64,000 nucleotides of DNA from Mobula hypostoma (Eukaryota). This document shows positions 4,301-61,142 of the stretch, piece by piece. Made by a program: the position numbers and the translations under genes. Each line of letters opens with the position of its first letter. The first letter of the stretch is position 1. Under the pieces are notes generated by a model. The model was given only the letters and a program-made list of their open reading frames with translations, was not told where the DNA came from and did no database searches. Location of the stretch: the NCBI RefSeq assembly GCF_963921235.1, contig NC_086097.1, forward strand, positions 31,994,001-32,058,000. The letters run 5' to 3'.

Positions 4301-4690
4301 CTTTACTCTTTATAGAAAAGGAGGATGAGAGGAGACATGATAGAGGTGTACAAGATATTAAGAGGAATAAATAGAGTGGATAGCCAGCGCCTCTTCCCCA
4401 GGGCACCACTGCTCAATACAAGAGGACATGGCTTTAAGGTAAGGGGTGGGAAGTTCAAGGGGACACAGTATTAGAGGAAGGTTTTTTACTCAGAGAGTGG
4501 TTGGTGCATGGAATGCACTGCCTGAGTCAGTGGTGGAGGCAGATACAACAGTGAAGTTTAAGAGACTATGAGACAGGTATATGGAGGAATTTAAGGTGGG
4601 GGGTTATATGGGAGGCAGTACTTGAGGGTCGGCACAACATTGTGGGCCGAAGGGCCTGTAATGTGCTGTACTATTCTATGTTCTATGTTC
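1371..4690 (+). mobile_element. CR1 LINE, 5'-truncated ORF2 (end of APE, RT, 3' tail), interrupted by a nested CR1
   Basis: ORFs 2850-3695, 3611-3880 and 3989-4315 carry [39 protein letters not shown] and LVRPHLEYCVQFWSP. Frameshift and stops present; (TTCTATG)n tail near 4673-4690. Confidence 0.92.
1817..2814 (+). mobile_element. CR1 LINE 3' fragment nested in another CR1
   Basis: ORF 1817-2737 (YINDLD..KYADD..RPNLEYRVQFWSP), short 3' UTR and TTATATG tail. The host CR1 resumes at ~2815. Confidence 0.9.
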
Positions 4691-4692
4691 AT

Positions 4693-4800
4693 TTCCAGTC
4701 CTGATGAAGGGTCTCAACTTGAAACATCCACTGTTTATTCATTTCCATGGATGCTGCCTGACCTGCCGAGTTCCTCCAGCATTTTGTATATGTGTTGCTG
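4693..4800 (+). mobile_element. Penelope-type terminal repeat fragment with degenerate minimal hammerhead motif
   Basis: CAGTC-CTGATGA-AGGGTCTCAACTT-GAAAC-ATC-CACTG followed by GATGCTGCCTGACCTGCCGAGTTCCTCCAGC; this motif recurs in the window. Confidence 0.6.
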
Positions 4801-13554: not shown

Positions 13555-16500
13555 AGACCTAGAGATTTAATCACTGTGGTGTATTTCTTACTCTTGTGGG
13601 ATAACGTCTTTCCTGACGAAGGGGGGTCACTGCTTGGTAGGAGGGACTTGCAGCTGTGAATCAATCTCAGTTTTTGGGGCCTCCTCTATGGTGGTTGTAA
13701 GAGTTGACCCTGGGTCTGCAGGAAGTGGTTCTGATGACTTTGAACATCTTTCTTCCGGATGTGTTGGCATCCACCACTGCTTGAATTTTCTCAGCACATT
13801 TGTGTAATCCTTGTGTGTCAATAGTGTGACCACAGTAAGTGATGCTTGGTTTGAAGAATTCACACTTGTTGCACCGTGCTCTGAGACCATAATCTTATAG
13901 TCTCTTTAACGCTGTCTTGAGATTTTGGAGGTGTTCCTTGTCATCTTTGATGTCGTTCAGGTAACACTGAGTGTCTGGGCAGCCCTGCAGCACCTGGACC
14001 ATTGATCTCTGCAAGAGTGCCGGTGCAGATGCTACTGTAGAAATAAACCTATTATAGTGATAAAGCCCTTTGTGAGTCCTTATGGTGAGAAACACTATGG
14101 AATCTTCTTCCATGTCCATCTGAATGTAGGCCTCAGTGATGGTGGCCTTAAAATCACCAGAGATCCTAACAGACCCATCTTTCTTGGCTACTGGGACCAC
14201 TGATGTTGCCCATGGGCCCCACTCAACCTTGGAAAGAATTTCTTCAGCCTCCATGCAGTCTAGCTCACTGGCTACTGTATCACAGATGGAATAAGGAACT
14301 GCCAGGCTTTGTAAAATGTGGGTGTGGCATTTTTATTTAGCATTATTTTATCCTATATATGTTGCGTTTTCCAATGCCATCCTTGAACATTGCTGCAGCA
14401 CAGGGGTGGCCAACCTATGGCACATGTGCCAAAAGTGGCGCATTGGATGACTAGAAGTGGCGCATGGCACCCCAGTGATGATAATAAAAAAGTAAGCCTG
14501 CTCATGCAAAAAGTATTAACCAAAAACTGACTTGTAGGAAAAAAATCTATAACAGGAATTCAAGTAGCTTCGAGCTAGAAATGAGTTTTACTGAGAATAA
14601 ATCTAAAACTTAGCAATTATTTTTAGCGATTTTATTATTTCATGCACATCTTTTGGTGAATATCATCTTCTTTCACATTAATCTGTTTTCAATTAAAGAA
14701 AATGTTCAATGAGTCAAACTAGGAAAGGACTTTTGTTCTGCAGTCATTCCATAACTGTTCAATACACGCTTGATACTTGTTTGATCCTGAGGCGCCAGGC
14801 GTCTGCACCAGCGGTGCATCGCAGGTTTTTGCCAGTCAGTTTACAATTGACACTCGCGCGCTATGGAGTTGTGGTTTGTTCGTCCTTTGTGAACATTTAC
14901 AGTTTTGTACTTTTTCGAAAATTAAGCCTTGTTTTTACATTCAATTACCCATCACAGTGCAATAGGAAAATGAACAAAAGAAAATCAGAAAGTGATGGTA
15001 AGTGTGAGTTCAATGAACAGTGGGAAAATGAGTTCTTATTTATAGGTCCATCAGGAAAACTGTTGTGCATTGTTTGTGAAAACACTTTCTCACATAATAG
15101 AAGACATGATCTTAATAGACACTATAAAACACAACATCAGACTGAAATAGAAGGAAAACTGAAGCTAGCTCTTGGGTCTGAGTTATGGAAAGAATATATG
15201 ATTAAGAAAAAGGAAGAAATCAAAAGAAGACAAAATATATGTGTTAAAAGTCTCATTAAGGTAAGTAATGCTTATCTTGTTTTTATATTATATCAATATA
15301 TCATGTAAAATGCTAAATATGTCTATATTAACATATTTTTACAAGAATTGAATGGAGGTACAATAGTTGTATGGCGCATCTGAACTCGTGCGTAAAAAAA
15401 TTGATGCATGGAATGTAAAAGGTTGGCCACCCCTGCTGCTGCATCATCTAGTACCTCTCTTAATTCTGTCTCAGTTGACTCAATTGCAGGAGCTCTGGAG
15501 CTAGGTCTCCAATCAAGTTGTAGTCATCTCAGTCACTCACAAGCCCACAATGCTGGCCCTCCTGTTTTTACCACATACAATCCCAATGTGGCTTCTTGGT
15601 TGGTCTATTTCACTGTTACGAAATTTATTCCCACAGGAGTGATCTTTTCTCCAGTATACTGCAAGTTCTTAGTTGGATACCTGCAGGCTTTAGTTCAGTA
15701 TCTTTAAAATGACTGAAGCAGCCGAGCCAGTGTCCAATTCCATTTTATTTGATTTGTTGTTCACTGCTGGTGTAGGCCATATTGCTTGTCTAGTGTTAGT
15801 TGTCACATTGTAAATCTCAAGGCTACTCAGTCCTGTGTTATTCTTATCATTATCAGATTTTTCATCAACAGCATTCAATTAGTGCTCCTTTTGAAACTAC
15901 AACTTGACTTTTATCTTTTTGTCCTCCCTGTGCAGTCCATTTCTTTTTGGCTATCCAACATGCTCTTTGTATGTGTCTTGCCTTGTTGCATTTTCTGCAA
16001 GTTTCACCTTTAAATCTACATCGGTCTGGAGTATATAAGCCCCTGCCACAATGGTAACACACATAAAATGCTGGAGAAACTCAGCAGGCCAGGCAGCATC
16101 TGTGGAAAAGAGTACAGTCAGCATTTAAGGCCTCCAGCATTTTGTATGTGTTGCTTGGATTTCCAGCATCTGAAGATTTTCTCTTGTTTGACAATGGGAA
16201 CACAATTTGTTTGGCCAGGCTGGTTTTATGTTCAAAGGTTGCAATTTTGTTCACGGTCATTTTCATTCTTGACTGTAACACAATTGTGTCTCTATTGATA
16301 CAGCTATTTCAACTGCTTTTTAAATACAAGTTGTGCTTCAGATAGGAGTTGTTTTTGAATGCTCTCTTGTAAGATTCTACAAACTAACTGATCTCTCAGT
16401 GCAAGTTTAAGCCCATCACTGAACTGAAAATGCTTAGACAATCTCTTCAACTCAGCCGTGTATCCTGAAATGATCCCCCTTCCTTTTGTTTCTGCCTATG

Positions 16501-19199: not shown

Positions 19200-19785
19200 A
19201 GCAGACACTGGAGATCTTGAGCCATACACACAAAATACTGGAAGAACTCAGCAAGTCAGGCAGCATCCGTGGTGAGGAATAAACAGTCAACGACTTGGGC
19301 TGAGACCCTTCATCAGGATTGGAAAGGAGGGAAGAAGAAGCCAAAATAAGGGTGAGGGGTGGGGAGGAGTACAAACTGGGACGTGATAGGTGAGACCCAG
19401 TGAGGGGGAAGGCGGGTGGGTGGGGGAGGGAGGGAGGATGAACTGAGAAGCTGGGAGATGATAGGTAGAAGAGATAAGGGGCAGAAGAAGGTGGAATCTG
19501 ACAAGAGAAGGCAGCAGACCATGGAAGAGAGGAAAGGAGGAGGGGAACCAGAGGGAGATGACAGACAGAAAAGAAGTGAAAGGGTAACCAGAATGGGGAA
19601 TGGAAAAAGAGGGGGAGAGACTACTAGAAGTTAGAGCAATCGATAACTCCTTCCCCTGCTCCCAGCCTCTTATTCTGACTTCTACCCCCCTTCCTTTCCA
19701 GTCCTGATGTAGGTTCTTGGCCCAAATCATCCCCTCTATAGATGCTGCCTGATCTGCTGAGTTCCTCCAGCACTTCGTGTCTATC
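19200..19785. mobile_element. Penelope-type fragments in inverted arrangement
   Basis: Minus copy (CTGATGAAGGGTCTCAGCCC, ~19284-19321) with a purine-rich body, then a plus copy (CAGTCCTGATGTAGG...GATGCTGCCTGATCTGCTGAGTTCCTCCAGC, ~19699-19772). Confidence 0.6.
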
Positions 19786-22092: not shown

Positions 22093-23074
22093 AAATCTAT
22101 CAGATATTGAAAAGCATAGATAGAGTGGATCTGGAAAGGACGTTTCCATTAATGGGAGAGTCTAGGACTAGAGGGCACAGCCTCAGGATAGGAGGTCATC
22201 CCTAGAACAGAGGTGACTGTTATTTATCCAGAGGGTATCGAATCTGTGAATTCATTGCCACAGATGGAGGTCAAGTAATCGTGTATATTTAAAGTGGAGG
22301 TTGATAGTTTCTTGATTAGTCAGGGTGTCAAAGGTTATGGGGAGAGGGCAGGGGAATGGGGTAGAGAGGGATAGTAAACCAGCCACGATGGAGTGGCAAA
22401 GCAGACTCAATGGACCAAATGGCCTCATTCTGCTCCTGTGTCTTATGGTCATCTGGAACATAAATGGGCAAGTCTCCAGGACGTGCTTGAAGGGAATTGC
22501 AATTATCATAGGAGGTTTTAATCTATGTATTGATTGGATGATCCAGACCGGCTGGGTATTGTGGGTGAACTTGTGGAGTATGTCAGAGATTGTTTTATTG
22601 AGCAGTACATGGCAGAGATTGGGATTTGGTCCTATGTAATGAGGAAGGGGTCTTGTGGTTAAGTATCTGTGTAAAACGCTGCCTGGGGTGGTGCTAAAGG
22701 CAGATACATTAGTGGAATTTGGGAGACCTTTAGACAGGCAAATGGACAATAGAAAAATGGAGGGCTATTTGGGAGGGAAGGGTTATTTTGATCTTGGAGT
22801 AGGTTAAAAGGCACAACACTGTGCCCCCCCCCCGCAAGAACCTATACTGTGATGAATTGTTCTATGTTTTAAAGGTCCCCTAAGGTGGATGAACCACAAT
22901 ATGACAACGTTGCAAATACAGTCTAAGGGCGTACACCACGGGTCAAGAACCAGAGTCCTCCCATTAAGTAAAAGCAGATATAATGGAGGGGGGCTGTAAT
23001 AGTCTCAGGTGGACTGGGGAAACAAGTTGAGAGACCAGTTTTGGGGACTAGAGAGAGATGGTCTACACAACTCA

Positions 23075-23620
23075 GCAAGAGTGCTGGAGGAATTCAGCAG
23101 GTCAGGCAGCATCTGAAGGGAGAAATAGTCAACGTTTCAGGTTGAGACCCTTCATCCGGACTAAAAGAAAGAGGGAGAATAGCCAGTGTAAAGGGGGAGG
23201 CGAAGGGATAGAAGAAGAGTTGACAGGTGATAGGTGGATCCAGGTGTGGAGAGGTGAAAGGCAGATGGAGGAGGGGAGAGTGGGAATAGCGACAGAGGCT
23301 GGGAGGTGATGGGTGGATCCAGGTGTGGAGTGGGTTATAAGCAAATGGAGGAGGAGAGGGTGGGAAAAATGGCAGACTGGGAAGTGATTGGTGGATCCAG
23401 GTGTGTAGAGGTGACAAGCAGATGGAGGAAAGGAGGGTGGAAATGGCAACAGGCTGGGAGGTGATGGATAGGTGATAGGCAGATAGAGGAGGGTAGGTGG
23501 GAATAGCGACAGGCTGGGAGACGATAGGTGGATCCACAAGTGGACAAGTGATAAGCAGATGGAGGAGAGGAGGGCGGCAATAGTGACAGGCTGGGGGGTG
23601 ATGAGTGAAGGTGTTAGAGG
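23075..23620 (-). mobile_element. Penelope-type fragment with hammerhead-like motif and purine-rich degenerate tandem region
   Basis: Minus 23126-23163 reads TAGTC-CGGATGA-AGG-GTCTCAA-CCT-GAAAC-GTT-GACTA. Repeated GGTGGATCCAGGTGTG...GCAGATGGAGGA units follow. Confidence 0.6.
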
Positions 23621-27464: not shown

Positions 27465-30400
27465 TATTCTATATTACTCTGCTGTCCTCAACTGATCAAT
27501 GGGACATATCCAGATGACATCAGAGATGAACACCACTGTGTAAGAGAGGGGTCTAGTTCTGTACTTAATCTTGCCTAGTACCCACTTCTGATTACCTCTG
27601 TAGTCCCTCACCAGGACAGTTTGTCCAAGAATGAAACTCCTTGTTTGAGGAGCCCTCAATATGTCTCAGCTGTTTCTACTGCATATTCCTTCTGAGATTG
27701 GGTTTGAGGAGATCCAAGCGTGAACACAAGGGATGACTCAGGGACAGCATAGCTGGTGAGTTGCTGGTTGTGGAGTGTGCTGCACTGTGATACGCAGGGA
27801 GCAAATTGGCGAGCTTCTGATTCAGTGTCAGTGTAGTGTGTTCTGCTGACATTGCTCGCACTGCGTTCTTTAGACTCTGGATAAACCGCTTCACCAAACC
27901 ATTTGTAGCTGAGTTGTACAGTGCAGATGGAATATGTCTTATCCCGTCCATTTTCAGGAATGACTGAAGCTTTTCCACAACAAATTGTGGTCCATTGTCA
28001 CTAACTAAATCTTCTGGACCATGAGATCTTGAGAAGAGGCTTCTCAACATGTCGACAATGTGCGAAGCTGTAATAGATGCTATCGGGAACACTTCTGGCC
28101 ACTTTTTAAGCTGCATCTGTTACTACCAAGAAATCTATGCCCATGAATAGTCTGGCAAAATCAACATGAATCCTCTGCTGGGGTAATTCAGGCCGTTCCT
28201 AGGGATGGAGAGGTGCTGATCTTGGCATCTTCTTGGCAAGCCGCTCAATCTGCTGATCTATTTCCCGACCACCAGACAAAGCTTCGAGCCAATGCTTCCA
28301 TTTTGACCATGCCTAGATGGACTAGCCTGTAGCTCCTCCAACACCTTAGCTCTCAGCTTTAATGGTACAACAACTCTCTGTCTCCACATAAGGATACCCC
28401 TTTCAAGGGCAAGTTCATCCTGGAATTGGTAAAAATGGGGGAACTGAAGTTTCTGCTGTACATTCTGGTCACTTTAAGTGCTATGTAGACCTGAGACAGT
28501 GTGGGATCTTTTCTGGTTTTCTTTTGGACCACTTTTGTTGTAATAGTGATTTTCATTATGGAGAATATGTCGAGAGGGGTGTCCTCTTGTGTAAATGTTT
28601 CAGATATTTCCTTTTCCAAGGATAAATGGGACAATCCATCAGCATTTCCGTGATTAGTTTTCTCTTGAATTTGATCTTGTAATGGTGTCCTCCACAAAAC
28701 AGAGTCCATCTCTGTATTCGAGCTGCTGCTGATAGTGAAACACCCTTCTGTGGATTGAAAGTGGACACTAGTCGTTGATGATCGGTAATGAGGATAAACT
28801 TTCTTCTATTCAAGCACTGGTTGAAACATATTGCACCCCAAACCAGACTCAAGGCCTCTCTGTCAATCTGTGCCTGATTTTTCTCAGCAGCAGTAAGGGA
28901 ACGTGACACAAAGGCTATGGGGTGTTCTATGGGTTTGGCAGGAACCTGTTGTAGTAAATGACACATCCTAAAAACTACCACATCTGTGACACGTCCTTTG
29001 GTCTTGGGATATCCACCACTGTTTGAATTTTCTCAGTGCACTTGGGTAATTCTTGTGTGTCAATGGTGTGACACACACCCTTGCCGGTAACAATGATGTC
29101 GTTCAGGTAACACTGAGTACCCGGGCAGCCTTGCATCACCCGGTCCATCGCTTTCTGCCAAAGTGCAGGTGCAGATGCTGCTCCAGAAATAAGCCTATTA
29201 TAGCGATAAAGACTTTTGTGGGTGTCTATGGTGAGAAACACTTTGGACTCTTCATCCATCTCCATCTGTTGGTAGGCCTCAGCTAAGTCCACTTTGTGAA
29301 GTTTTCCTCCAGAAAGACATCCTCTATCCTGAGCAGGGGGTATTGATCTACTTTCAGTACTGGTTTGATGGAGATCTTAAAATTAACACAGATTTTGACA
29401 GCATTGCCCAGGGGCTGCACTCAACCTTGGAAAACATTCCTTCAGCCTCCATGAGATCTAGCTCACTGGCACTTTATCACGGATTGTGTAGGGAATCGGA
29501 CAGACTTTGGAAAACTTGGGTGTGGTATTTTCATTTCAACATTACTTTACCCTTGATATGTTTGAGTTTTCCAATGCTATCCTTGAACACTGCTGTGGCA
29601 TCATCCAGTATCTCTCTTAATTCTATCTCAGTTGACTCTATTACAGGGGATGTGGCATGCAAATAGTGGATGGGTCTCCAATCAAGTTGCAGTTGTCTCA
29701 GCCAATCACAAGCCCACAATGTTTTTACCACATACAAGCCCAATGTGGCTTGCTGGCTGTTGTATTTCACTGTTACAAATACCATCCCCACAGGAGTTAT
29801 CTTTTCTCCAAAATACTGTAAATTATTCATTGAATACTTGCAGGCTTCAGTTGAGTATCTTTAAAATGCTGCTCAGACTCATTTTGTAGAATGACAAACA
29901 GTCAAGCTTGTGTCTAATTCTATTTTAATTAATTTACCATTGACGTCTGATGTAAGCCATATTGCTTGTCTATGGTTAGAAATCTCAAGGCTAGCCATTC
30001 CTTTGTCCCTCTCATCACTATCTGAGTTTTCATCAACAGCATACAGATAAGTGCTCTTTTTTGAAACTGCAGCTTGTCTTTTTCTCTTCACTGTGCAGTC
30101 AGTTTATTTGTGTCTGCTCAACGTGCTCTTTGTATGTGTCCTACTTTGTTGTATTTTTCTACAGATTTCACCTTTAAATCTGCATTAGTCTGGTGTATGT
30201 GAGCCCCTGCCACAACAGTAACACATTTTGTTCAACCAGGCATATTTCTGTTTAGACATTGAAATTTTGTTCACACTCACATTCATTCTATTCAATCAAC
30301 CTCATAAGTGGAAATTGATACCCCTTCTTTTGATTCCAATTATGAAACCTAAAGTGTCCTGAAATCAACAGTGGGTTTGGTTCTAAATGTTCCTGCATTA

Positions 30401-36406: not shown

Positions 36407-36587
36407 GCATGTTTCCCCGTTCCAGAATTTCGGAGGAGCAGGAGAACAGGGAGAAGCTGCACAAGATCCTGGACACCATCACGGACACACTGATCTGGTG
36501 CATGTCCCGGAGTGGGATCCCACCCCAGCAACAGGCCACCAGGCTGGCCCACCTCCTCATGCTGCTTTCACATGTCCGGCACGCCAG
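36407..36587 (+). CDS. ESR2: Estrogen receptor (ESR2-like; possibly a separate paralog), penultimate coding exon, LBD helices 9-11
   Basis: CCACAG acceptor and AG|GTAGGC donor; 181 bp. Encodes [59 protein letters not shown](S). [12 protein letters not shown] is ER-beta-like. Family is certain; paralog is not. Confidence 0.93.
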
Positions 36588-36615
36588 GTAGGCACACCGC
36601 AGGCTCCCTCCCTCC

Positions 36616-39600
36616 GACACCGGAGTGGACTGTGTCACCGGGGTGGACTGTATCACCGGGGTGTACTGTGTCACGGGGTGTACTCTGTCACCGGGGTGTA
36701 CTCTGACACCGGGGTGGACTGTGTCACGGGGTGCACTCTGTCACCGGGGTGTACTGTGTCACCGGGGTGGACTGTATCACCGGGGTGTACTCTGTCACCG
36801 GGGTGTACTCTGTCACCGGGGTGTACTGTGTCACCGGGGTGTACTCTGACACCGGGGTGTACTCTGACACCGGGGTGGACTGTGTCACGGGGTGTACTGT
36901 GTCACCGGGGTGTACTGTGTCAGCGGGGTGTACTGTATCACCGGGGTGTACTGTATCACCGGGGTGGACTCTGACACCGGGGTGGACTGTGTCAGCGGGG
37001 TGGACTGTGTCACCGGGGTGTACTGTGTCACCGGGGTGGACTGTGTCACAGGGGTGGACTGTGTCACCGGGGTGTACTCTGTCACCGGGGTGTACTCTGT
37101 CACCGGGGTGTACTGTATCACCGGGGTGTACTGTATCACCGGGGTGTACTGTGTCAGCGGGGTGTACTGTGTCACCGCGGTGTACTCTGACACCGGAGTG
37201 GACTGTGTCACTGGAGTGGACCGTATCAGCGGGGTGGACCGTACCAGCGGGGTGTACTGTGTCAGCGGGGTGTACTGTATCACCGGGGTGTACTCTGACA
37301 CCGGGGTGGACTGTGTCAGCGGGGTGTACTGTGTCACCGGGGTGGACTGTGTCACCGGGGTGTACTGTATCATCGGGGTGTACTCTGACACCGGAGTATA
37401 CTGTATCACTGGGGTGGACTGTGTCACCGGAGTGGACTGTATCAGCGGGGTGGACTGTACCAGCGGGGTGTACTGTGTCAGCGGGGTGGACTGTATCAGT
37501 GGGGTGGATTGTGTCAGCGGGGTGTACAGTGTCACCGGAGTGTACTGTATCACCGGGTTGTACTGTGTCACGGGGTGTACTGTATCACCGGAGTGTACTG
37601 TGTCACGGGGTGTACTGTATCACCGGAGTGGACTGTATCAGCGGGGTGGACTGTACCAGCGGGGTGTACTGTGTCACGGGGGTGGACTGTATCACCGGGT
37701 TGTACTGTGTCACGGGGTGTACTCTGTCACCGGGGTGTACGGTGTCACGGGGGTGGACTGTATCACCGGTGTGTACTCTGTCACCGGGGTGTACTGTATC
37801 ACCGGGGTGTACTGTGTCACCGGGGTGTAATGTGTCAGCGGGGTGGACTGTATCAGCGGGGTGGACTGTGTCACCGGGGTGTACTGTGTCACCGGTGTGT
37901 ACTCTGTCACCGGGGTGTACTGTATCACCGGGGTGGACTGTGTCAGCGGGGTGTACTCTGACACCGGGGTGGACTGTGTCACGGGGTGTACTCTGTCACC
38001 GGGGTGGACTGTGTCACGGGGTGTACTCTGTCACCGGGGTGGACTGTGTCAGCGGGGTGTACTCTGACACCGGGGTGTACTCTGTCACCGGGGTGGACTG
38101 TGTCACCGGGGTGTACTGTGTCACGGGGTGGACTGTATCACCGGGGTGGACTGTGTCACCGGGGTGTACTCTGACACCGGGGTGGACTGTGTCACCGGGG
38201 TGTACTCTGTCACCGGGATGGACTGTGTCACGGGGTGTACTGTGTCACGGGGTGTACTCTGTCACCGGGATGGACTGTGTCATGGGGTGTACTGTGTCAC
38301 CGGGGTGGACTGTGTCAGCGGGGTGTACTCTGACACCGGGGTGGACTGTGTCACCGGGGTGGACTGTGTCAGCGGGGTGTACTGTGTCACCGGGGTGGAC
38401 TGTGTCACGGGGTGTACTCTGTCGCCGGGGTGTACTGTATCCCCGGGGTGTACTCTGTCACCGGGATGGACTGTGTCAGGGGGTGTACTCTGTCACCGGG
38501 GTGGACTGTGTCAGCGGGGTGTACTCTGACACCGGGGTGGACTGTGTCACCGGGGTGGACTGTGTCAGCGGGGTGTACTGTGTCACCGGGGTGGACTGTG
38601 TCACGGGGTGTACTCTGTCGCCGGGGTGTACTGTATCCCCGGGGTGTACTCTGTCACCGGGGTGGACTGTGTCAGGGGGTGTACTCTGTCGCCGGGGTGT
38701 ACTCTGTCACCGGGGTGGACTGTGTCAGGGGGTGTACTCTGTCACCGGGGTGGACTGTGTCACGGGGTGGACTGTGTCAGCGGGGTGTACTGTGTCACCG
38801 GGGTGTACTGTGTCACGGGGTGTACTGTGTCACGGGGTGTACTCTGTCACCAGGGTGTACTGTATCAGTGGGGTGGACTGTGTCACCGGGGTGCACTCTG
38901 TCACCGGGGTGGACTGTATCAGCAGGGTGTACTGTGTCACCGGGGTATACTGTATCAGCGGGGTGTACTGTGTCACCGGGGTGGACTGTATCACCGGGGT
39001 GTACTGTGTGCACTGTATCAGCAGGGTGTACTGTGTCACCGGGGTATACTGTATCAGCGGTGTGTACTGTGTCACCGGGGTGGACTGTATCAGCGGGGTG
39101 TACTGTGTCACCGGGGTGGACTGTGTCAGCGGGGTGGACTGTGTCACCGGGGTGTACTGTGTGCACTGTATCAGCAGGGTGTACTGTGTCACCGGGGTAC
39201 ACTGTATCAGCGGGGTGTACTGTGTCAGCGGGGTGTACTCTGTCACCGGGGTGGACTGTGTCACCGGGGTGCACTGTGTCACCGTGGTGTACTGTGTCAC
39301 CGGGGTGTACTGTATCACGGGGTGTACTGTGTCACCGGGGTGTACTGTGACACCGGGGTGTACTGTGTCACCGGGGTGTACTGTGACACCGGGGTGTACT
39401 GTGTCAGCGGGGTGTACTGTGTCAGCGGGGTGTACTGTATCACCAGGGAGTACTGGATCAGCGGGGTGTAGTGTATCATCGGGGTGGACTGTTTCGGCGG
39501 GGTGTACTCTGTCACCGTGGTGGACTGTATCACCGGGATGTACTGTGTCACCGGGGTGTACTGTATCAGCGGGGTGGACTGTGTCACCGGGGTGCAGTCT

Positions 39601-42600
39601 GTCACCGGGGTGGACTGTATCACCGGGGTGTACTGTGTGCAATGTATCAGCAGGGTGTACTGTGTCACCGGGGTATACTGTATCAGCGGGGTGTGCTGTG
39701 TCACTGGGGTGTACTGTGTCACCGGGGTGCACTGTGTCACCAGGGTGGACTGTATCAGCGGGGTGGACTGTGTCACCGGGGTGCACTCTGTCACCGGGGT
39801 GTACTGTGTGCACTGTATCAGCAGGGTGTACTGTGTCACCGGGGTGTACTGTATCAGTGGGGTGTACTGTGTCACCGGGGTGGACTGTATCAGCGGGGTG
39901 GACTGTGTCAGCGGGGTGTACTCTGTCACCGGGGTGTACTGTGTCACGGGGTGTACTGTGTCAGCGGGGTGTACTGTATCACCGGGGAGTACTGGATCAG
40001 CGGGGTGTAGTGTATCATCGGGGTGGACTGTTTCGGCGGGGTGTACTCTGTCACCGTGGTGGACTGTATCACCGGGATGTACTGTGTCACCGGGGTGTAC
40101 TGTATCAGCGGGGTGGACTGTGTCACCGGGGTGCACTCTGTCACCGGGGTGGACTGTATCACCGGGGTGGACTGTATCACCGGGGTGTACTGTGTGCACT
40201 GTATCAGCAAGGTGTACTGTGTCACCGGGGTATACTGTATCAGCGGGGTGTACTGTGTCAGCGGGGTGGACTGTGTCACCAGGGTGGACTGTATCAGCGG
40301 GGTGGACTGTGTCACCGGGGTGTACTGTGTGCACTGTATCAGCAGGGTGTACTGTGTCACCGGGGTGTACTGTGTCACCGGGGTGGACTGTATCAGCGGG
40401 ATGGACTGTGTCACGGGGTGTACTCTGTCACCGGGGTGTACTGTGTCAGGGGGTGTACTCTGTCACCGGGGTGGACTGTGTCACGGGGTGTACTGTGTCA
40501 CCGGGGTGGACTGTGACACGGGGTGTACTGTGTCACCGGGGTGTACTGTGTCAGCGGGGTGTACTGTGTCACGGGGTGTACTGTGTGACGGGGTGTACTG
40601 TGTCACCGGGGTGCACTCTGTCACCGGGGTGTACTCTGTCACCGGGGTGTACTGTGTCATGGGGTGTACTGTGTCACCGGGGTGTACTCTGTCACCAGGG
40701 TGTACTGTATCAGCGGGGTGGACTGTATCACCGGGGTGTACTGTGTGCACTGTATCAGCAGGGTGTACTGTGTCACCGGGGTATACTGTATCAGCGGGGT
40801 GTACTGTGTCACCGGGGTGGACTGTATCACCGGGGTGTACTGTGTGCACTGTATCAGCAGGGTGTACTGTGTCACCGGGGTATACTGTATCAGCGGTGTG
40901 TACTGTGTTGCCGGGGTGGACTGTATCAGCGGGGTGTACTGTGTCACCGGGCTGGACTGTGTCAGCGGGGTGTACTGTGTCACCGGGGTGTACTGTGTGC
41001 ACTGTATCAGTAGGGTGTACTGTGTCACCGGGGTGTACTGTGTCAGCGGGGTGGACTGTGTCAGCGGGGTGTACTGTGTCACCGGGGTAAACTGTGAACC
41101 GGGGTGGACTGTGTCACCGGGGTGTACTCTGTCACCGGGATGTACTGTATCACCAAGTGTACTGTGTCAGCGGGGTGTACTGTATCACCGGGGTGTACTG
41201 TGTCAGCGGGGTGTACTGTGTCAGTGGGGTGTACTGTATCACCGGGGTGTACTGGATCAGCGGGGTGTAGTGTATCATCGGGGTGGACTGTATCAGCGGG
41301 GTGTACTCTGTCACCGTGGTGGACTGTATCACCGGGATGTACTGTGTCACCGGGGTGTACTGTATCAGCGGGGTGGACTGTGTCACCGGGGTGCACTCTG
41401 TCACCGGGGTGGACTGTGTGCACTGTATCAGCAGGGTGTACTGTGTCACCGGGGTGTACTGTATCAGCGGGGTGTACTGTGTCACCAGGGTGGTCTGTAT
41501 CAGCGGGGTGGACTGTGTCAGCGGGGTGTACTCTGACAGCGGGGTGTACTCTGACAGCGGGGTGGACTGTGTCACCGGGGTGTACTGTATCAGCGGGGTG
41601 TACTGTGTCACCGGGGTGCATTCTGTCACCAGGGTGTATTGTATCAGCGGGGTGGACTCTGACACCGGGGTGTACTGTGTCACCGGGGTGTACTGTATCA
41701 GCGGGGTGGACTGTGTCACCGGGGTGCACTCTGTCACCGGGGTGGACTGTATCACCGGGGTGTACTGTGTGCACTGTATCAGCAGGGTGTACGGTGTCAC
41801 CGGGGTATACTGTATCAGCGGGGTGTACTGTGTCAGCGGGGTGTACTGTATCACCGGGGAGTACTGGATCAGCGGGGTGTAGTGTATCATCGGGGTGGAC
41901 TGTTTCGGCGGGGTGTACTCTGTCACCGTGGTGGACTGTATCACCGGGATGTACTGTGTCACCGGGGTGTACTGTATCAGCGGGGTGGACTGTGTCACCG
42001 GGGTGCACTCTGTCACCGGGGTGGACTGTATCACCGGGGTGGACTGTATCACCGGGGTGTACTGTGTGCACTGTATCAGCAAGGTGTACTGTGTCACCGG
42101 GGTATACTGTATCAGCGGGGTGTACTGTGTCAGCGGGGTGGACTGTGTCACCAGGGTGGACTGTATCAGCGGGGTGGACTGTGTCACCGGGGTGTACTGT
42201 GTGCACTGTATCAGCAGGGTGTACTGTGTCACCGGGGTGTACTGTGTCACCGGGGTGGACTGTATCAGCGGGATGGACTGTGTCACGGGGTGTACTCTGT
42301 CACCGGGGTGTACTGTGTCAGGGGGTGTACTCTGTCACCGGGGTGGACTGTGTCACGGGGTGTACTGTGTCACCGGGGTGGACTGTGACACGGGGTGTAC
42401 TGTGTCACCGGGGTGTACTGTGTCAGCGGGGTGTACTGTGTCACGGGGTGTACTGTGTGACGGGGTGTACTGTGTCACCGGGGTGCACTCTGTCACCGGG
42501 GTGTACTCTGTCACCGGGGTGTACTGTGTCATGGGGTGTACTGTGTCACCGGGGTGTACTCTGTCACCAGGGTGTACTCTGTCACCAGGGTGTACTGTAT

Positions 42601-44856
42601 CAGCGGGGTGGACTGTATCACCGGGGTGTACTGTGTGCACTGTATCAGCAGGGTGTACTGTGTCACCGGGGTATACTGTATCAGCGGGGTGTACTGTGTC
42701 ACCGGGGTGGACTGTATCACCGGGGTGTACTGTGTGCACTGTATCAGCAGGGTGTACTGTGTCACCGGGGTATACTGTATCAGCGGTGTGTACTGTGTTG
42801 CCGGGGTGGACTGTATCAGCGGGGTGTACTGTGTCACCGGGCTGGACTGTGTCAGCGGGGTGTACTGTGTCACCGGGGTGTACTGTGTGCACTGTATCAG
42901 TAGGGTGTACTGTGTCACCGGGGTGTACTGTGTCAGCGGGGTGGACTGTGTCAGCGGGGTGTACTGTGTCACCGGGGTAAACTGTGTAACCGGGGTGGAC
43001 TGTGTCACCGGGGTGTACTCTGTCACCGGGATGTACTGTATCACCAAGTGTACTGTGTCAGCGGGGTGTACTGTATCACCGGGGTGTACTGTGTCAGCGG
43101 GGTGTACTGTGTCAGTGGGGTGTACTGTATCACCGGGGTGTACTGGATCAGCGGGGTGTAGTGTATCATCGGGGTGGACTGTATCAGCGGGGTGTACTCT
43201 GTCACCGTGGTGGACTGTATCACCGGGATGTACTGTGTCACCGGGGTGTACTGTATCAGCGGGGTGGACTGTGTCACCGGGGTGCACTCTGTCACCGGGG
43301 TGGACTGTGTGCACTGTATCAGCAGGGTGTACTGTGTCACCGGGGTGTACTGTATCAGCGGGGTGTACTGTGTCACCAGGGTGGTCTGTATCAGCGGGGT
43401 GGACTGTGTCAGCGGGGTGTACTCTGACAGCGGGGTGTACTCTGACAGCGGGGTGGACTGTGTCACCGGGGTGTACTGTATCAGCGGGGTGTACTGTGTC
43501 ACCGGGGTGCATTCTGTCACCAGGGTGTATTGTATCAGCGGGGTGGACTCTGACACCGGGGTGTACTGTGTCACCGGGGTGTACTGTATCAGCGGGGTGG
43601 ACTGTGTCACCGGGGTGCACTCTGTCACCGGGGTGGACTGTATCACCGGGGTGTACTGTGTGCACTGTATCAGCAGGGTGTACGGTGTCACCGGGGTATA
43701 CTGTATCAGCGGGGTGTACTGTGTCACCGGGGTGGACTGTATCACCGGGGTGTACTGTGTGCACTGTGTCACGGGGTGGACTGTATCAGCGGTGTGTACT
43801 GTGTCATGGGGTGGACTGTGTCACCGGAGTGTACTCTGACACCGGGGTGTACTGTGTCAGCAAGGTGGACTGTATCACCAGTGTGTACTCTGACACCGGG
43901 GTGTACTGTGTCACCGGGGTGGACTGTGACACCGGGGTGTACTCTGTCACCGGGGTGTATTGTATCAGCGGGGTGTACTGTGTCACCGGGGTGTACTCTG
44001 TCACCGGGGTGTACTGTGTCACGGGGTGTACTGTATCAGTGGGGTGTACTGTGTCACCGGGGTGTACTCTGTCACCGGGATGTACTGTATCACCAAGTGT
44101 ACTGTGTCAGCGGGGTGTACTGTATCAGCGGGGTGTACTGTGTCAGTGGGGTGTACTGTATCACCGGGGTGTACTGGATCAGCGGGGTGTAGTGTATCAT
44201 CGGGGTGGACTGTATCAGCGGGGTGTACTGTGTCACCGGGGTGTACTGTATCAGCGGGGTGGACTGTGTCACCGGGGTGGACTGTGTCACCGGGGTGGAC
44301 TGTGTCACCGGGGTGTACTGTGTGCACTGTATCAGCAGGGTGTACTGTGTCACCGGGGTGTACTGTATCAGCGGGGTGTACTGTGTCACCGGGGTGGTCT
44401 GTATCAGCGGGGTGGACTGTGTCAGCAGGGTGGACTGTGTCAGCGGGGTGTACTCTGACAGCGGGGTGTACTCTGACAGCGGGGTGGACTGTGTCACCGG
44501 GGTGTACTGTATCACCGGGGTGTACTGTATCAGCGGGGTGGACTGTGTCAGCGGGGTGGACTCTGACACCGGGGTGTACTGTGTCAGCGGGGTGTACTGT
44601 GTCACCGGGGTGGACTGTATCAGTGGGGTGTACTGTGTCACCGGGGTGGACTGTATCAGCGGGTTGTACTGTGTCACGGGGTGGACTGTGTCACCGGGGT
44701 GTACTGTATCAGCGTGGTGGACTGTATCAGCGGGGTGTACTCTGTCACCTGGGTGTACTGTATCACGGTGTGTACTGTATCACTGGGGTGTACTGTGTCA
44801 GCGGGGTGTACTGTGTCAGCGGGGTGTACTCTGTCACCCGGGTGTACTGTATCAGC
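36616..44856. repeat. ~8.2-kb minisatellite, 18-bp unit (~460 copies)
   Basis: Consensus GTCACCGGGGTGTACTGT with variants (GGAC/GTAC, ATCA/GTCA, AGCG/ACCG, 17-bp units); fills nearly all of the last ESR intron. Confidence 0.97.
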
Positions 44857-45187
44857 ACTCTGCCACGTAACCCGAACTATAACCACTTGATCAAACTGTG
44901 ACTCACTGTGACACATTACCCTGACTGTACCAACACTGCCTGTGAACCATACTAACTACATTGTAACCACTGTACCAGGTGACCATACCGTCACCAAACT
45001 GTAGCTACACTGTAATATTGCTGTACCATATATTGTAACAGTGTTGTATCCTGTGACCCAGACTGTAACCACTGTAACTGTACCTAGTAACCAAACTGTA
45101 ACAACGTTGTCATTAATCACATTGTGTGTGTGTATGTGTATTGCCTCCCACCTGTTTCACTGCCTCTCCCTGTTGTCCACCCCACAG

Positions 45188-45344
45188 TAACAAAGGCATG
45201 GAGCACCTCTACAGTATGAAGTGTAAGAACATGGTTCCCTTTTATGACCTGCTGCTGGAAATGTTGGATGCTCACGTCATCTACAATTACCGCAAGCCCT
45301 CGGAAGAGCACAACCCCGGGCAGTCGAAGGGTGACAATCTCTGA
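45188..45344 (+). CDS. ESR2: Estrogen receptor (ESR2-like) last coding exon: helix 11-12/AF-2 and short F domain
   Basis: Polypyrimidine tract plus CCCACAG acceptor; AG|T rebuilds Ser in phase with the previous exon. Encodes [55 protein letters not shown]. Confidence 0.95.
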
Positions 45345-48250
45345 ACTCTGCAAATTCCCTTCACCTGTGACACAGCTTCCCTCCCAAACCCAGCTATCCA
45401 AACAGGAAACCTCATCCCAAACTCTGACACCATTCCTCTTCTTGGCAGGAGGGAAGGGAGACACCAGCGGGGAGGCTCAGTGAAGAGGGTACAGTTGAAC
45501 GGGGTGGGGGTGGGTGGGTTAGGGAGCTGATAGCTGAGCACTAGCCCACATAACCCCGGATCCCCTCGCCCCTGTCTCCACTATCCCAACCCAACTGACC
45601 CCCCCCCACCCAAATGTTTCCCAATGGCTGGTTTCCTGTCCAACCGCCCCCAATCTCCAAAACTCCTCTCCCTGCACCTGAGACTGGGGTAAGTAACAGG
45701 AGATCCCATTCACCCCATCACCCAAGTTACAGGCACAGCACCTAATGTTATGGGATGGGGGGGGGGTGAGGTCTGTTCCTGCCTGCAGTGAGGCAAGTGG
45801 TGAGAGAAGGGACAAGGAATGTGGGGTGAGGGGGCAAGGAGTAATGGTTCAAGGGACAAGCAATGAGGGGAATAGGGCAAAGGTTGAGGGACAAGGGTCA
45901 AGGAATGAGAGGTCAAATGGGGCAAGGGGACAAGGGGTGAGAGGTGAGGGGACAAGGGGCAAAGGATGACATTCTGGAGCAGCCATGACAGCACACTTGA
46001 CTGGGAACAGAGGCCTCTCAGGGGGTAGCTCAGGAAACTCCCTCGGAGAGCACGGACGAAATTGGAATTGGGGGTACAGGGAAAAACTTTGTTTTGCATG
46101 CCATCCATACAGATGGTTTCATCACAACAGTGCTTTGAGAAAGTACAAGGGGAAACAGCAACAGAGTGCAGAATAAAGTGTTACAGAGAAAGTGCAGGCA
46201 GGCAGACAGGTGCAAGGTCACATTGAGGTAGATTGTGAGGTCAGGAGTCCATCTTCTCACACTAGGGAACTGTTCATCAGTGGGGCAAAAGCTATCCTCG
46301 AGCCTGATGGCATACGCTTTCAGTCTTTTCTATCTTCTGCCCAATAGGAGAGGGAAGAGGAGCGGGTGGGGTCTTTGATGATGCTGGCTGCTTTACCAAG
46401 GTAGTGAGAAGTTCAGACAGAGACTATGGAGGGGAGGCTGGTTTCGGTGATGTGCTGAGCTGTGTCCAGCTCTTTGAGGCTGAACTGCCTGTGACTCTGC
46501 TGTACTGAGGGGTGGGATGCTGGCCCTCTCACCTCACTATCTCTGGCACAGTGAGATCCCTTCTTTACTGCTCTCAGGGGGTTGGAGGTTCCTGGGCAGG
46601 GGCGTGACTACCCTTCCCCCCCACTCCCTAGGCTCCACATTCCAGCCCTGGGATGGGTGGAGGGAATGGACCTCACAGGATTTCTCTCTTGAGCTACTGA
46701 GTCACCCCAACCTCCCCAAAAAATGCCTTGCTAATGAGAGAGGAGCAAAGGAGAATAGCCAGTTCAAACTCACAGGAAGGCACCGGTAACTCAAATAACA
46801 ACGCGTTACAACAGTGGTGTGCAGAAGAGCATCTCTGAATGCACAACACGTTGGACCTTAAGTGGATGGGCTACAGCAGCAAAAGACCACAAACAATCAC
46901 TCTTCACACCAGTGTGTGTGTGTGTGTGTGTATTTTACACACATACACACACACACACTCTCACATAACCCCTTCCCCCACTCCCCACACACACTCACTT
47001 CCTCAGAGCCTCCAGCAATGCAAAGACTCTCCTGAAGGGGGGAAGGGGGTTGTGGGGAGTAGATGGTTGGGATATACAGGCAGCAGAATTGTGGATTACA
47101 GGAGTTTGCTTTGGAGGCAGGGTTGGGGAGGGTATCAAGGGAGTATAGGATAGGAGGAGTCAGGGGGTTGGGTGCTGGTAGCTTTGTTCAGGATGGTGAC
47201 CCCTTTCCCCTGGGTCTAACCTGTGACCCAGCTTTTACCCTTGACCCTGGGTCACCGAGGGGTGACCTCTGCTCCTTCTCTGCCACCACCACTCCTGAGA
47301 AAGCTGGCTGCAGGGAATCTGTGACCCCCCCTCCAGCACCCCAGTCCATCCACCACCTGGGATACTCAGCTGGGTGGGGGCATGGGGCTGGGTTATAGAG
47401 CTGGGGGGAGGGGAGGGGAGGGTCGTTCTCCCACCTTCCCACCCTGGAGACCAACTGTTACAACCGCTCTTGTGTGTACCCCACCACAGGCACAGACCAT
47501 CACTGGCCTCACATCACCTCCTCTCTCTATCCCTCCTCCCACCATCCCCTCAGTCCCCAGGGGAGCAGCTGTCCTCATCAGCCAGACCTTCCGGTCAAGT
47601 ATTGAGTAACAGGATGGATCATGGGAGTTTCATCTGTCCCTGCTAGGATCAGCCTGGGCTGGTGGACCCTACTCCTCAAGGGTGGCGGGGGGGCAGGGGT
47701 GGTTCCAAGATCCGGCCTTGACAGAGCCCAAACACCACCTTCCGACCCTTTCCCCTGTCCCTCAGCCAGGACTCGGTACCGGCCAACCCCGCCCCATAAT
47801 TGACTACCTCTGCCCCGTTATGGACAGTCCCACCCTGAGCCCCCTCCTCCTACCCCCAACTCTCCTCCAAGCAGAATCTGTCAGCCATTTGCCAGGGCGA
47901 TCCAGCTGTTCCCCATCCACACACCTGCAGCCCCACACCTTGCATCTGTTATTCTCACCGCAGGCCAGGGGCACGGCTGACCCATCCTTTAATCAGACCG
48001 CTGCCCTCATGAATGTATATTTTCTCTGCTGCAGCCCGCAACTCTGTGGCAATGAATGTTAACAACCAGATGGATTTTACAGCTGTGTATTGTTGATTGC
48101 ATAAAATTATTTATCTCTCTATATAAAGTGTCCTCTTGTTCTTGCCAGCTCCCAAAATGCATAACCTCACATGCCTTTGGGTTCAATTCCACTTGCCGCA
48201 CGAGCTAAAATCATTAATGCACGGTATAGAAAAGCAACTAAGTAGAGTGG

Positions 48251-48438
48251 GCCAGGCAGCATCTCTAGGAAGAGGTATAGTCGACGTTTCAGGCCGAGAC
48301 CCTTCGTCAGGGAGGAAGGGTCTCGGCCTGAAACATCGACTGTACCTCTTCCTAGAGATGCTGCCTGGCCTGCTACATTCACCAGCAACTTTGATGTGTG
48401 TTGCTTGAATTTCCAGCATCTGCAGGATTCCTGTTGTT
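48251..48438. mobile_element. Palindromic Penelope-type insertion with hammerhead core and 12-bp TSD
   Basis: Inverted arms ~48251-48305 and ~48315-48370. TAAGTAGAGTGG at 48239-48250 and 48439-48450. Confidence 0.75.
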
Positions 48439-49954
48439 TAAGTAGAGTGGACCACCTCCGCCCCGGTAAAACCTTTCCTGTCACAGAAGCAGCCATCCAA
48501 CATTACAAACTGCAACCCCACCCCCTCCCAACCACCAACCCGTGGCTTCCCATTACTTGGCTAATTTTGGACTCAATTCGCCATTCTCCTTTAGATTCCA
48601 AGATCATTGGAGACCTTGTATTGGTTTATCATTATCTCACATACCCAGATACAGTGGAAAAACTTGCCTTGCAGATTATTTATACAGATCAGATCACTAC
48701 ACAGTGTATTGTGGTGGGGGGGGGGGGGGCGGTCTTTGATGATGCTGGTTGCTTTACCGAGGCAGCAAGAAGTGTAAGTAGTCCATGGAGTGGAGGCTGG
48801 TTTCGTTTAACTTCCAGTAATTTCTCCACCCTCCCTCCTCTGTTTTTCTATTCCCCATTCTGGTTCTTATACCTTCCCTTTCTCCCATGACCCACATCCT
48901 CCTCCAGCCCTTTAACTCTTCCACCAGCTTCTCAACCTCCCCTGCCCACTCACCTGGTTAGCTTGTACTCCTGCCTTCTTCTGCTGGCTTCTTCCCCCTT
49001 CCTTTCCAGACCCGCTGAAGGGTCTCGGCCCTAAAAGCTGATTGATTGTTCTTCCCCATAGATGCTGCCTGACCTGTTGAGTTCCTCCAGCATTTTGTGT
49101 GTGTAGCTCCAGGTTTCCAGCATCTGCCGAATGTCTTGTTTATGGGACTGTGATGTGTTGAGTCTCCTAAAGTTTTCTTAAATGCCAAAGTCTCCTTAAT
49201 TTCCAGGTGGAGCGCATCAAAAGCACCCCCCCCCCCACCGCCCATCCACAACCTCCTGTTCCTTTGTCAAGAAATTGAACCTAATTAGCCAGAAACAGCT
49301 ATCATTGAACAAGTCCAGGCTGACTGCTGATTAATCTGGAGAATGGATTCCAACAATATGTCACCACTAATGTTAGTTTAACAGGTCGATACTAACCCGA
49401 CAAAGGGTTTTTATGAACATTAAACGCTGGCGTCAGTGGTGTGACAGAGGTGGAAGTATGCGCAAAACTCTTATCCAATTCACAGACCAAGAAAGGGAGA
49501 TGAGCTTAATTTGTTACATGTACATCGAAGCATACAGGAGAAATAGGGAGGGAGGGGGATCTCATTGAAAGGCCTAGAGTGGACGTAAAGAGGATGTTTC
49601 CTATAGTGGAGGAGTCTAGGACCAGAGGGCACAGTCTCACAATAGAAATATGTCCCTTTAAGAACAGAGATTGAGGAGAATTTCTTTAGCCAGAGGGTAA
49701 TCTGTGGAATTCATTGCCACAGATGGCTGTGGAGGTCAAGTCACTGAGTATACATAATAGGTTAGAAAGGGTGTCAAAGGTGAAAGGGAGAAGGCAGGAG
49801 AATGGGGATTGAGAGGGAAAATAAATCAGACATGATGGAAAGGCGGAGCAGACTTGAAGGGCCATATGGCCTAGTCCTGCTTCTATGACTTGTGGTCTAA
49901 AGATTAAAGTGTTCCCTGGAGCGTGTGGCAACCCATTCTCTAGGTTGTGTTGGT

Positions 49955-50990
49955 TAGAAACATAGAAAACCTACAGCATAATACAGGCCCTTCAGCCCAC
50001 AAAGCTGTGCTGAACATGTCCTTACCTTAGAAATTACCTAGGGTTACCCATAGTCCTCTATTTTTCTAAGCTCCGTGTACCTATCCAGCAGTCTCTTAAA
50101 AGACCCTATCGTATCCGCCTCCACCACTGTCGCCGGCAGCCCATTCCACACACTCACCACTTCCTGCGTAAAAAACTTACCCGACATCTCCTCTGTACCT
50201 ACTTCCAAGCACCTTAAAACTATGCCCTCTCATGCTAGCCATTTCAGCCTTGGGGAAAAGCCTCTGACTATCCACACGATCAATACCTCTCATTATCTTG
50301 TAACCTCTATCAGGTCACCTCTCATCCTCTGTCGCTCCAAGGAGAAAAGGCCGAGTTCACTCAACCTATTCTTATAAGGCATGCTCCCCAATTCAGGTAA
50401 CGTCCTTGTAAATCTCCTCTGCACCATTACTATGGTTTCCATATCCTTCCTGTAGTGAGGTGACACAGTACTGTAACATTACCTCTCGGCTCTTAAACTC
50501 AATCCCACAATTGATGAAGGCCAATGCACAGTAGACCTTCTTAACCACAGAGTCAACCTGCGCAGCAGCTTTGAGTGTCCTATGGACTCGGACCCCAAGA
50601 TCCCTCTGATCCTCCACACTGCCAAGAGTCTTACCATTAATGCTATATTCTGCCATCATGTTTGACCTACTAAAATGAACCACCTCACACTTAGCTCGGT
50701 TGAACTCCATCTGCCACTTCTCAACCCAGTTTGTGAGCCAACTGACTCTTCAGTTCGGTTCCCACCCCCCAGCAATTCTAGTTTAAACTCTTCCCAATAG
50801 CCTTAGCAAGCCTCCCCACCAGGATATTGGTCCCCCTTGGATTCAACTGCAACCCGTCCTTTTTGTACAGGTCACGCCTGCTCTGAAAGAGGTCCCAATG
50901 ATCCAGAAATCTGAATCCCTGCCCCCTGCTCCAGTCCCTCAACCACGCATTTATCCTCCACCTCATTCTATTCCTATACTCACTGTCACT
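49955..50990 (-). mobile_element. Internally deleted CR1: ORF1 (esterase-like) C-terminus joined to ORF2 3' end
   Basis: Minus ORF 50778-51143 contains INAWLRDWSRGQGFRFLDHWDLF..DGLQLNPRG. ORF 50393-50710 (MEFNRAKCEVVHF) is the post-RT region. Confidence 0.8.
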
Positions 50991-52246: not shown

Positions 52247-52252
52247 TTTATT
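52247..52252 (-). terminator. Candidate polyadenylation signal of the nesprin gene
   Basis: AATAAA on the minus strand ~650 nt after the stop codon, followed by a GT-rich stretch (GTGTGAGTGTGTG). Confidence 0.6.
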
Positions 52253-52898: not shown

Positions 52899-53121
52899 TC
52901 AAGTGGGTGGGGGTCCATGTGTGTACCGCAGCATGGGATAGAGGGAACGGGCGAAGTTATTGGCAACAGAGCAGCTGTACTCAGGCTGCTGGAGGGGCAA
53001 GAGGGAGGCAAGGAGGAGGAGGAAGAGGAGGAGCAGCTGGAGGGGCAGGGCTGCCCTCAACACCCGGCCCAGGAAGGGCCGTTCCCTTGGGGAGGTCTGC
53101 TCCACTGTCACTGGCGCTGAC
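52899..53121 (-). CDS. SYNE2: Nesprin (SYNE2-like) last exon: transmembrane segment and KASH domain
   Basis: CCCCCCAG acceptor. Encodes SAPVTVEQTSPRERPFLGRVLRAALPLQLLLLFLLLLASLLPLQQPEYSCSVANNFARSLYPMLRYTHGPPPT-stop, a canonical KASH peptide. Confidence 0.95.
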
Positions 53122-54170
53122 CTGGGGGGCAGAGAGAGACAGTGAGTAGGTCAATCTCCTCCAGGAGGACTAACATCTCCCCTGTCTCCCACCTCACTTC
53201 ATCTCCTTCTCCCTCTCCCCCCAACATCTCCCTCATCTCCTACCTCCCATCTCCATAATGTTCCAATGTCTCCTCTCCTACCATCTCACTCCATCTGCTG
53301 CCTCCCCATCTCCTCTCCCTGTTTCCACCTGTCCTCAAAATGTCTCCTTTGTCCTCTCTCCCCCCCAACATTTTGGCCCCACCTCCCCGCCTCCCCACAA
53401 CATCTCCTTCCCATCTCTCTTGCCCTGTTTCCAACCCTGTCTATACTCAAAATGTTTCATCCCTCATCTCCTGCCCCCACAGACCAGACCAGCAACTCAT
53501 GGTTCACACCCATCCCATAGATCTGCTCCCTGACTCAAACCTGCTCTCACTGGCCCCCTCCATACCTACTCATCCCTATACCCACCACAACACAGATCCC
53601 CCCCCCATCCCCTCTCCATTCCCACCTCTCCCTACATCCACTCAACCCCTTCTCTCTCAGTTCCTTACCCCCATCCCACATGACACCTCCCCTCCCCAGA
53701 CCCTCCTCCTCTTTCACATACCCCCACACCTCCCCAACTCACCTAACAGGCCCCTTCCCCCAACCCCTCCACCCCTCTCACACCACCCCATCCCCTCCCC
53801 TACACCCCCTTCCCCTCCTTCCATCTCCAGTCCTCTCACTCTCCTACCCTCTTGACCCATTCATTTTCCCTCCCTCATCCCTACTTTCCCTTTTCTTCAA
53901 ACCTTCCCCCCCCCCATAGACATGTCAATTAAATGGAGAGGAGAGTGGGGGCAGAGAATCGAGCCAGTCTCTCCAAATGAAGTCAGGACACTGTGAACAT
54001 CAGGAAAGGGTGGACTGAAAGAAGCAGAGCCCAACCTCCCCGTCCCACCGTGCAGTGATCCCTGACTCCGCTTCTTCTGCCCAGTGACCCTTGGAACCCC
54101 CCCCCCACCGCACTGCCCAGTGACCCTCTGACCCCTCACCCCCCATTCAGTGACCTCACCCAGTACTCAC

Positions 54171-54554: not shown

Positions 54555-54599
54555 CTGTGGCAAGAAAGAGCAGACACAGTGAGGGTGGCAAATGATATT

Positions 54600-60806: not shown

Positions 60807-61142
60807 TACCTGGCATAGCTCTGTGGGGTCAGTGAGGTCGGCTGCTCACATTACCTGTCTCTACAGGGTCGAGGTTTAAAGGTTACCATTCAGAGGTCAC
60901 AGTGCCCACTCCCTGGCTTTGTGGAGCTGTGCTTCACAGGTCACCAGGACCTGTGACCTGGTACTATAGAGCCAAAGTCACTGTGTGCCATTATCAGGCT
61001 CTGCGGAGTTCAGAGGTCAGCATTTAGCGGTTACTGCATTCCGTTAGCTAGTTCTGCAACAGGAGTCAAAGTCCAGGGGTCACAGCGCCCAGTGACCTGG
61101 CTCTGCCAGGGTCAGAGTTCAGGGGTCACAGCACCCAGTTAC

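Follow-up and report, generated by a model that had tools for sequence, protein, structure and literature searches.

Minimal hammerhead ribozymes have been reported from metazoan Penelope-like elements (PLEs), and in the available text of Cervera and De la Pena (2014, PMC4209133) they are recognised by a nucleotide inserted between positions 9 and 10.1, a G10.1-C11.1 pair, a palindromic 15.2-16.2 and their grouping in consensus families. According to the same text they are inactive as monomers and weakly active as dimers. A dimer model for their cleavage is given in the accessible part of PMC6765202, and excerpts of PMC11167929 report both that a PLE hammerhead is assisted by protein and that hammerhead mutants do not block insertion in vitro. 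The insertions left by PLEs are described, in the part of Craig et al. available (bioRxiv 10.1101/2021.04.23.441226), as being truncated at the 5' end, with an inverted piece next to them and a tail on one side.

The repeat analysed here lies in a window of 64,000 nucleotides of Mobula hypostoma DNA (NC_086097.1, 31,994,001 to 32,058,000). Its motif resembles the PLE ribozymes of PMC4209133, as far as these are described there, in its type I form, the lack of helix III, the 5-bp helix I, the extra nucleotide A9/G10.1, the palindromic 15.2-16.2 and the G10.1-C11.1 pair, which here has often decayed to G-U. Its copies are mostly solitary and dispersed through the genome, as that text also reports for fish, coelacanth and Xenopus, but helix II is 4 bp long, in contrast to the 7-8 bp of the Schistosoma families in the same source. 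The available part of supplement file 2 of PMC4209133 contains no shark, skate, Callorhinchus or Leucoraja entry. A further likeness is to the Poseidon PLE of Anolis carolinensis (PAc), which in the excerpts of PMC11167929 has stems I and II near the element end, a cut site that is kept uncut and an optional 3' tail; PAc, however, is an intact element with a tested, protein-assisted ribozyme, whereas the copies in the window are truncated, mutated and known from sequence alone. Animal non-LTR retrozymes, including one chondrichthyan case, are also similar in being non-coding, pLTR-related units with a type I hammerhead (bioRxiv 10.64898/2026.07.22.740005, abridged text), although these consist of head-to-tail units with complete hammerheads and the window copies are solitary or form inverted pairs. 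This kind of motif has been in print since 2014.

The window covers the convergent 3' ends (36407-53150) of an estrogen receptor gene (ESR) on the plus strand and a nesprin (SYNE-like) gene on the minus strand, with stop codons 7.5 kb apart. The following exons were recognised:

36407..36587, plus strand: estrogen receptor ligand-binding-domain exon, penultimate coding exon
45188..45344, plus strand: last coding exon of the estrogen receptor, in phase with the previous one
52902..53150, minus strand: KASH-domain last exon of the convergent nesprin gene (PF10541, E 1.4e-25)

Against solved ER chains the two ESR exons gave E values of 8e-15 (36407-36587) and 9e-14 (45188-45344); as regards ESR1 or ESR2, one exon scores better with ER-beta and the other slightly better with ER-alpha. 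A spectrin repeat of the nesprin gene is also found on the minus strand. No earlier ESR exon was detected in the window by motif search, and the repeat copies between 4.7 and 23 kb would therefore lie in one long ESR intron. Nearly the whole of the last ESR intron is filled by an 8.2-kb tandem array (36618-44854) of about 450 copies of an 18-nt (9-nt based) unit, which starts 30 nt after the ESR exon and yields long spurious open frames.

Copies of the repeat had been predicted at 4696-4733 (+), 19284-19321 (-), 19699 (+), 23126-23163 (-), 48278-48310 (-) and 49007-49044 (+), and all of these are present. An HMM of the listed copies gave 8 strong matches in the window (E 2e-34 to 7e-18), which added two copies, at 48311-48402 (+) and, in decayed form, at 16054-16132 (-). 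The insertions to which they belong are:

4688..4800, plus strand: short copy, sense to ESR; core letters intact, with G16.2A, G1.1C and C11.2U
16055..16190, minus strand: decayed, 5'-truncated copy with an inverted 3'-tail piece; 7-bp target duplication (16048-16054 / 16191-16197)
19200..19645, minus strand: the longest copy (about 440 nt), in which the motif at 19284-19321 carries G12A, A14G and A15.1U
19646..19784, plus strand: sense to ESR, the 5'-truncated inverted counterpart of the 19284 copy; its motif at 19699 shows A9U and G12A and has lost the 3' stem I strand
23126..23163, minus strand: minimal type I hammerhead-like motif, recognised by alignment and descriptor (the 23126 copy)
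48251..48438, arms on both strands: young inverted insertion; 59-bp arms, 95% complementary; 12-bp target duplication (48239-48250 / 48439-48450)
48800..49140, plus strand: long decayed copy; motif at 49007-49044 with U4C, A6C, G12U and U16.1C

The single pattern that had been proposed for all six copies fits three of them with at most four substitutions; it does not fit the copy at 19699, which is without the 3' strand of stem I, the copy at 48278, which is without the 5' strand, or the copy at 49007, which has four core changes. That every copy has a defect, as was also proposed, is borne out copy by copy. The 4696 copy, whose insertion follows directly on the short simple-repeat end of a LINE-like piece, loses the palindrome through G16.2A and the pair adjoining the cut site through G1.1C, and the copy at 16069 holds only the 3' part of the motif. 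The insertion at 48251-48438 has its apex inside the hammerhead core and a tail on the right arm only; its minus arm (48278-48310) keeps an intact core, the core of its other copy (48317) is truncated, and the whole lies between the ESR and SYNE stop codons. The motif at 49007-49044 is 3.6 kb past the ESR stop codon. Copies differ from the in-window majority by 12-21%, and 79 of the 106 differences are transitions. In the two longest copies (19621-19645 on the minus strand, 48800-48825 on the plus strand) the start falls at almost the same place in the family, shortly ahead of in-frame stop codons, and this place may mark the end of the element's ORF or the border of the pLTR.

The anatomy of the motif was read from a 38-column alignment of the six copies, which is free of internal gaps. 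Its order is a 5-bp stem I, the core C3-A9, one extra A, stem II, G12-A15.1, C15.2-G16.2, U16.1, H17 and stem I again, in type I topology and without a helix III loop. Stem II had been proposed to be AGG/CCY; a reading in which the extra A follows A9 and 4 bp (GGGU with RCCY) close a 4-nt loop fits better and replaces it, with pairing in 24 of 24 stem II cells. Stem I pairs in 17 of 20 cells, and slid controls pair in 12.5-47.7%. The majority letter is canonical at each core column (C3 U4 G5 A6 N7 G8 A9, G12 A13 A14 A15.1, U16.1 H17), with all 11 core letters kept in two of the six aligned copies. The extra A between 9 and 10.1 is present in all six; positions 10.1-11.1 are G-C in two and G-U in four, and 15.2-16.2 is palindromic CG in three, CA in two and AG in one. 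All four diagnostic traits given in the available text of PMC4209133 therefore appear, at least in part, in the window family, and with its canonical majority core and two pairing helices the family motif matches the minimal type I hammerhead described for PLE pseudo-LTRs, as the original prediction held.

A generic minimal-hammerhead descriptor found no perfect motif in the window; with one mismatch allowed in the core (CUGANGA) the 23126 copy was its sole match, and 20 shuffles gave none. When up to 3 mismatches are permitted, the 38-nt pattern occurs at two places in the window and at none in 100 shuffles. No hammerhead family was among the 28 matches (E up to 5) of an Rfam scan over the window. 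In viral, metagenome and prokaryote collections pattern scans gave no locus, and a literature search found the 14-letter motif string in no paper. Nor did we find the family in the papers searched on Penelope with hammerhead, shark, chondrichthyan or stingray, some supplements of which may list it.

The 23126 copy is the most complete one in the window, and its parts, all on the minus strand, are as follows:

23163-23159 and 23130-23126, minus strand: 5' and 3' strands of stem I
23158-23152, minus strand: core C3-A9, with U4G at 23157; the extra A is 23151
23150-23147 with 23142-23139, minus strand: stem II, with a G10.1-U11.1 wobble
23138-23135, minus strand: G12-A15.1, followed by palindromic C15.2-G16.2 (23134-23133), U16.1 (23132) and U17 (23131)
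23131/23130, minus strand: predicted cut site
23066..23125, minus strand: stretch conserved in the family on the 3' side of the motif, where the repeat is most abundant
23164..23620, minus strand: upstream portion of this repeat, rich in pyrimidines, where a 77-80 nt unit is locally expanded in tandem

The TAGTC/GACTA stem and the CGGATGA core reported for this copy are both there, and the core is broken by U4G. In the available part of PMC3088659 the change U4C is reported to lower hammerhead activity considerably in vitro; no passage on U4G was found in that part. The family has U at this position in 92% (run X1) and 93% (run X6) of its depth, so U4G is a rare or private change. The two-stem fold is the centroid of the 38-mer, which folds no better than its shuffles (z -0.27), and an alternative fold wins when the flanks are included. 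Contigs of organism B run from the unique flank into this repeat with 3 differences, and cover 23135-23260 with 1 difference; as they span flank and junction, the insertion is probably shared by the two organisms and older than their split. Most likely the 23126 copy is an inert antisense relic in the ESR intron.

Three insertions (48251-48438, 19200-19784 and 16055-16190) combine an inverted, 5'-truncated piece with a tail at one end. The one at 48 kb is a clear example of 5' inversion of the PLE type. Two of these have target duplications, of 12 bp at 48 kb, where the duplication is perfect, and of 7 bp at 16 kb; no convincing duplication was found at the 19-kb, 23-kb and 49-kb copies. Each of the eight copies starts on the 5' side of the predicted cut and continues across it, and none starts at the cut site. 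No RT/GIY-YIG frame of a PLE was found by Pfam among the 448 stop-free frames of at least 55 aa in the window outside the 8-kb tandem array; the window copies are too short to hold a PLE ORF, and the window contains no full-length element. A protein search with the frame at 19201-19620 (-) yielded 0 of 873 longer candidates. Two representative matches to this frame were set aside, one being a spurious frame that ends in the same repeat and has no Pfam family, and the other unrelated. Membership of the repeat among PLEs is thus suggested by its motif and by the form of its insertions, and we consider it very probable that all eight are dead insertions, truncated on the 5' side, which derive from the 3' end (pseudo-LTR) of a Penelope-like retroelement family amplified to high numbers.

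Several other elements occur in the window. The Pfam search of the 448 frames gave LINE-type and LTR-type RT pieces, an RLE-type piece, KASH and spectrin. Within the SYNE gene, at 54596-56032 (+), a non-LTR element is represented by its 3' part, in which a zf-RVT match is followed by a region that by eye looks like a restriction-like endonuclease. Broken LTR-retrotransposon pol pieces are found at 27679-29376 (-), with RT, RNase H and integrase by Pfam, and at 13898-14332 (-), by eye only. Two copies of a 1.3-kb element (1-1371 and 59479-60807) are 81% identical, the first holding an inverted repeat at about 358-519, and a frame with a Spin-doc zinc finger (PF18658) at 14697-15305 (+) is probably the remnant of a DNA transposon.

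If the repeat is such a pseudo-LTR, a possible course of events can be proposed. In the source element the motif would form a minimal type I hammerhead without helix III, and the palindromic A15.1-C15.2-G16.2-U16.1 (ACGU) would let two copies complete helix III as a dimer. Judging from the published systems, this dimer would cut after N17, weakly and probably with the help of the element's protein; cleavage by the source element is proposed by analogy with them. The genomic copies were probably reverse-transcribed, starting 3' of the motif, from RNA that was uncut at this site, and on integration acquired short target duplications and, in some cases, an inverted 5' piece. Since then they have most likely been inert, and probably decayed neutrally, mostly by C-to-T and G-to-A changes.

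The abundance of the family was followed by placing run contigs, at 80% likeness, on a 361-nt stretch that includes the 23126 repeat. Three DNA runs placed 12,350, 13,210 and 12,725 contigs there. In X1 the summed depth reaches about 1.4 million on the stretch that follows the motif on its 3' side, compared with 8.4 in the unique flank; such depth is not a copy number. Among the positions listed, variation in the family is highest at the CpG letters 15.2 and 16.2, where it amounts to 17-21% in the DNA runs; U4A accounts for 3.6% in X1. Organism D (X13) has A at core position 4 in 54% of the depth and U in 42%, compared with about 4% A in organisms A and B (X1, X6); this could mean either that a subfamily whose core is non-canonical has been amplified or that a subfamily has become independent of the ribozyme. 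Run X5, which is RNA by guess only and so gives no evidence on expression, has U4 in 44% and C15.2U in 52% of its depth, unlike the DNA run of the same organism, and may reflect a few deep contigs.

One reading refines the explanation of the copies as dead PLE relics and does not replace it. The TAGTC/GACTA stem had been put forward as a compensatory change. The change of pair is real: in a single copy the outermost pair of stem I has gone from C-G to U-A by one double transition, but this does not rise above chance in the window. A covariation score as high as that of the window copies was reached by 236 of 500 shuffles, and with C-to-T or G-to-A changes at 41 of 340 sites in the copies, decay alone is expected to give at least one double change among 30 G-C cells with a probability of 36%. 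Variation in stem II is all one-sided (G-C/G-U, U-G/U-A). It is nevertheless possible, though somewhat less likely than not, that the U-A pair belongs to a true subfamily whose stem I was preserved by compensatory change during the active life of the element, and that the 23126 copy inherited the pair instead of acquiring it by decay. Both outer letters do recur in the family, since the 5' outer position is C in only 29% (X1) and 26% (X6) of the depth and the 3' outer position is G in 66% and 70%, and the 23126 copy carries tail and upstream variants of its own. However, the depth at these edge positions comes from a small subset that favours the reference (7,036 and 11,197 against 66,055 at U4 in X1), and the depth table carries no linkage. 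The shares in X13 disagree with each other, with 95% C at the 5' outer position and only 61% G at the 3' one, and the same G/A difference also separates the two arms of the 48-kb insertion, where no 5' partner strand is present.

It is also possible, though we think it unlikely, that the repeat is a non-autonomous unit, a retrozyme or SINE-like element derived from a PLE, which amplifies on its own. A short non-coding unit of very high abundance would suit this explanation, as would the near-common start of the two longest copies, and PLE-derived retrozymes are reported in one chondrichthyan genome in the abridged text of bioRxiv 10.64898/2026.07.22.740005. The same text, however, defines active retrozymes as head-to-tail arrays with the hammerhead in consecutive units, whereas the copies in the window have scattered 5' ends besides being solitary or inverted pairs, and none of the 62 TRF rows for the window is a tandem array containing the motif.

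We regard it as very improbable that the likeness to a hammerhead is a chance feature of an unrelated repeat. The absence of an Rfam hammerhead match, of a folding excess and of significant covariation in the window would agree with chance, but this is disfavoured because 11 rightly spaced core letters, two helices and the published diagnostic extras occur together, and against it there are also the empty descriptor searches of shuffled sequence and the PLE-like structure of the insertions.

Sense copies in the ESR pre-mRNA had been predicted, and ESR is indeed on the plus strand with two plus-strand copies upstream of its exons, and a contig of X5 covers the flank of the 23126 copy, but that these are functional ribozymes which cut the ESR (or SYNE) pre-mRNA is hardly credible, as both sense copies (4696 and 19699) are broken and 15 kb apart, the 23126 copy runs antisense, the intact core at 48278 lacks stem I and is locked in a hairpin of -117 kcal/mol, and the X5 contigs show neither strand nor ends.

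There is thus no sign in the window of a ribozyme acting on the estrogen receptor transcript. It is improbable, in our judgement, that active subfamilies keep a selected ribozyme while changing it, as the C-G to U-A change in stem I and the A in place of U4 in the core of organism D might be taken to suggest. If this were true, the changing core would be a natural non-canonical hammerhead, probably assisted by protein, and, given the large number of genomic copies, dimers with element RNA could lead to cleavage in trans of some intact intronic copies, although nothing points to such cutting at the ESR locus. That no copy out of eight starts at the cut speaks, in a small way, against the 5' end being set by cleavage. 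An abundant family with young, target-duplicated insertions provides material on whether inserted ends are shaped by cleavage and whether stems covary between subfamilies.
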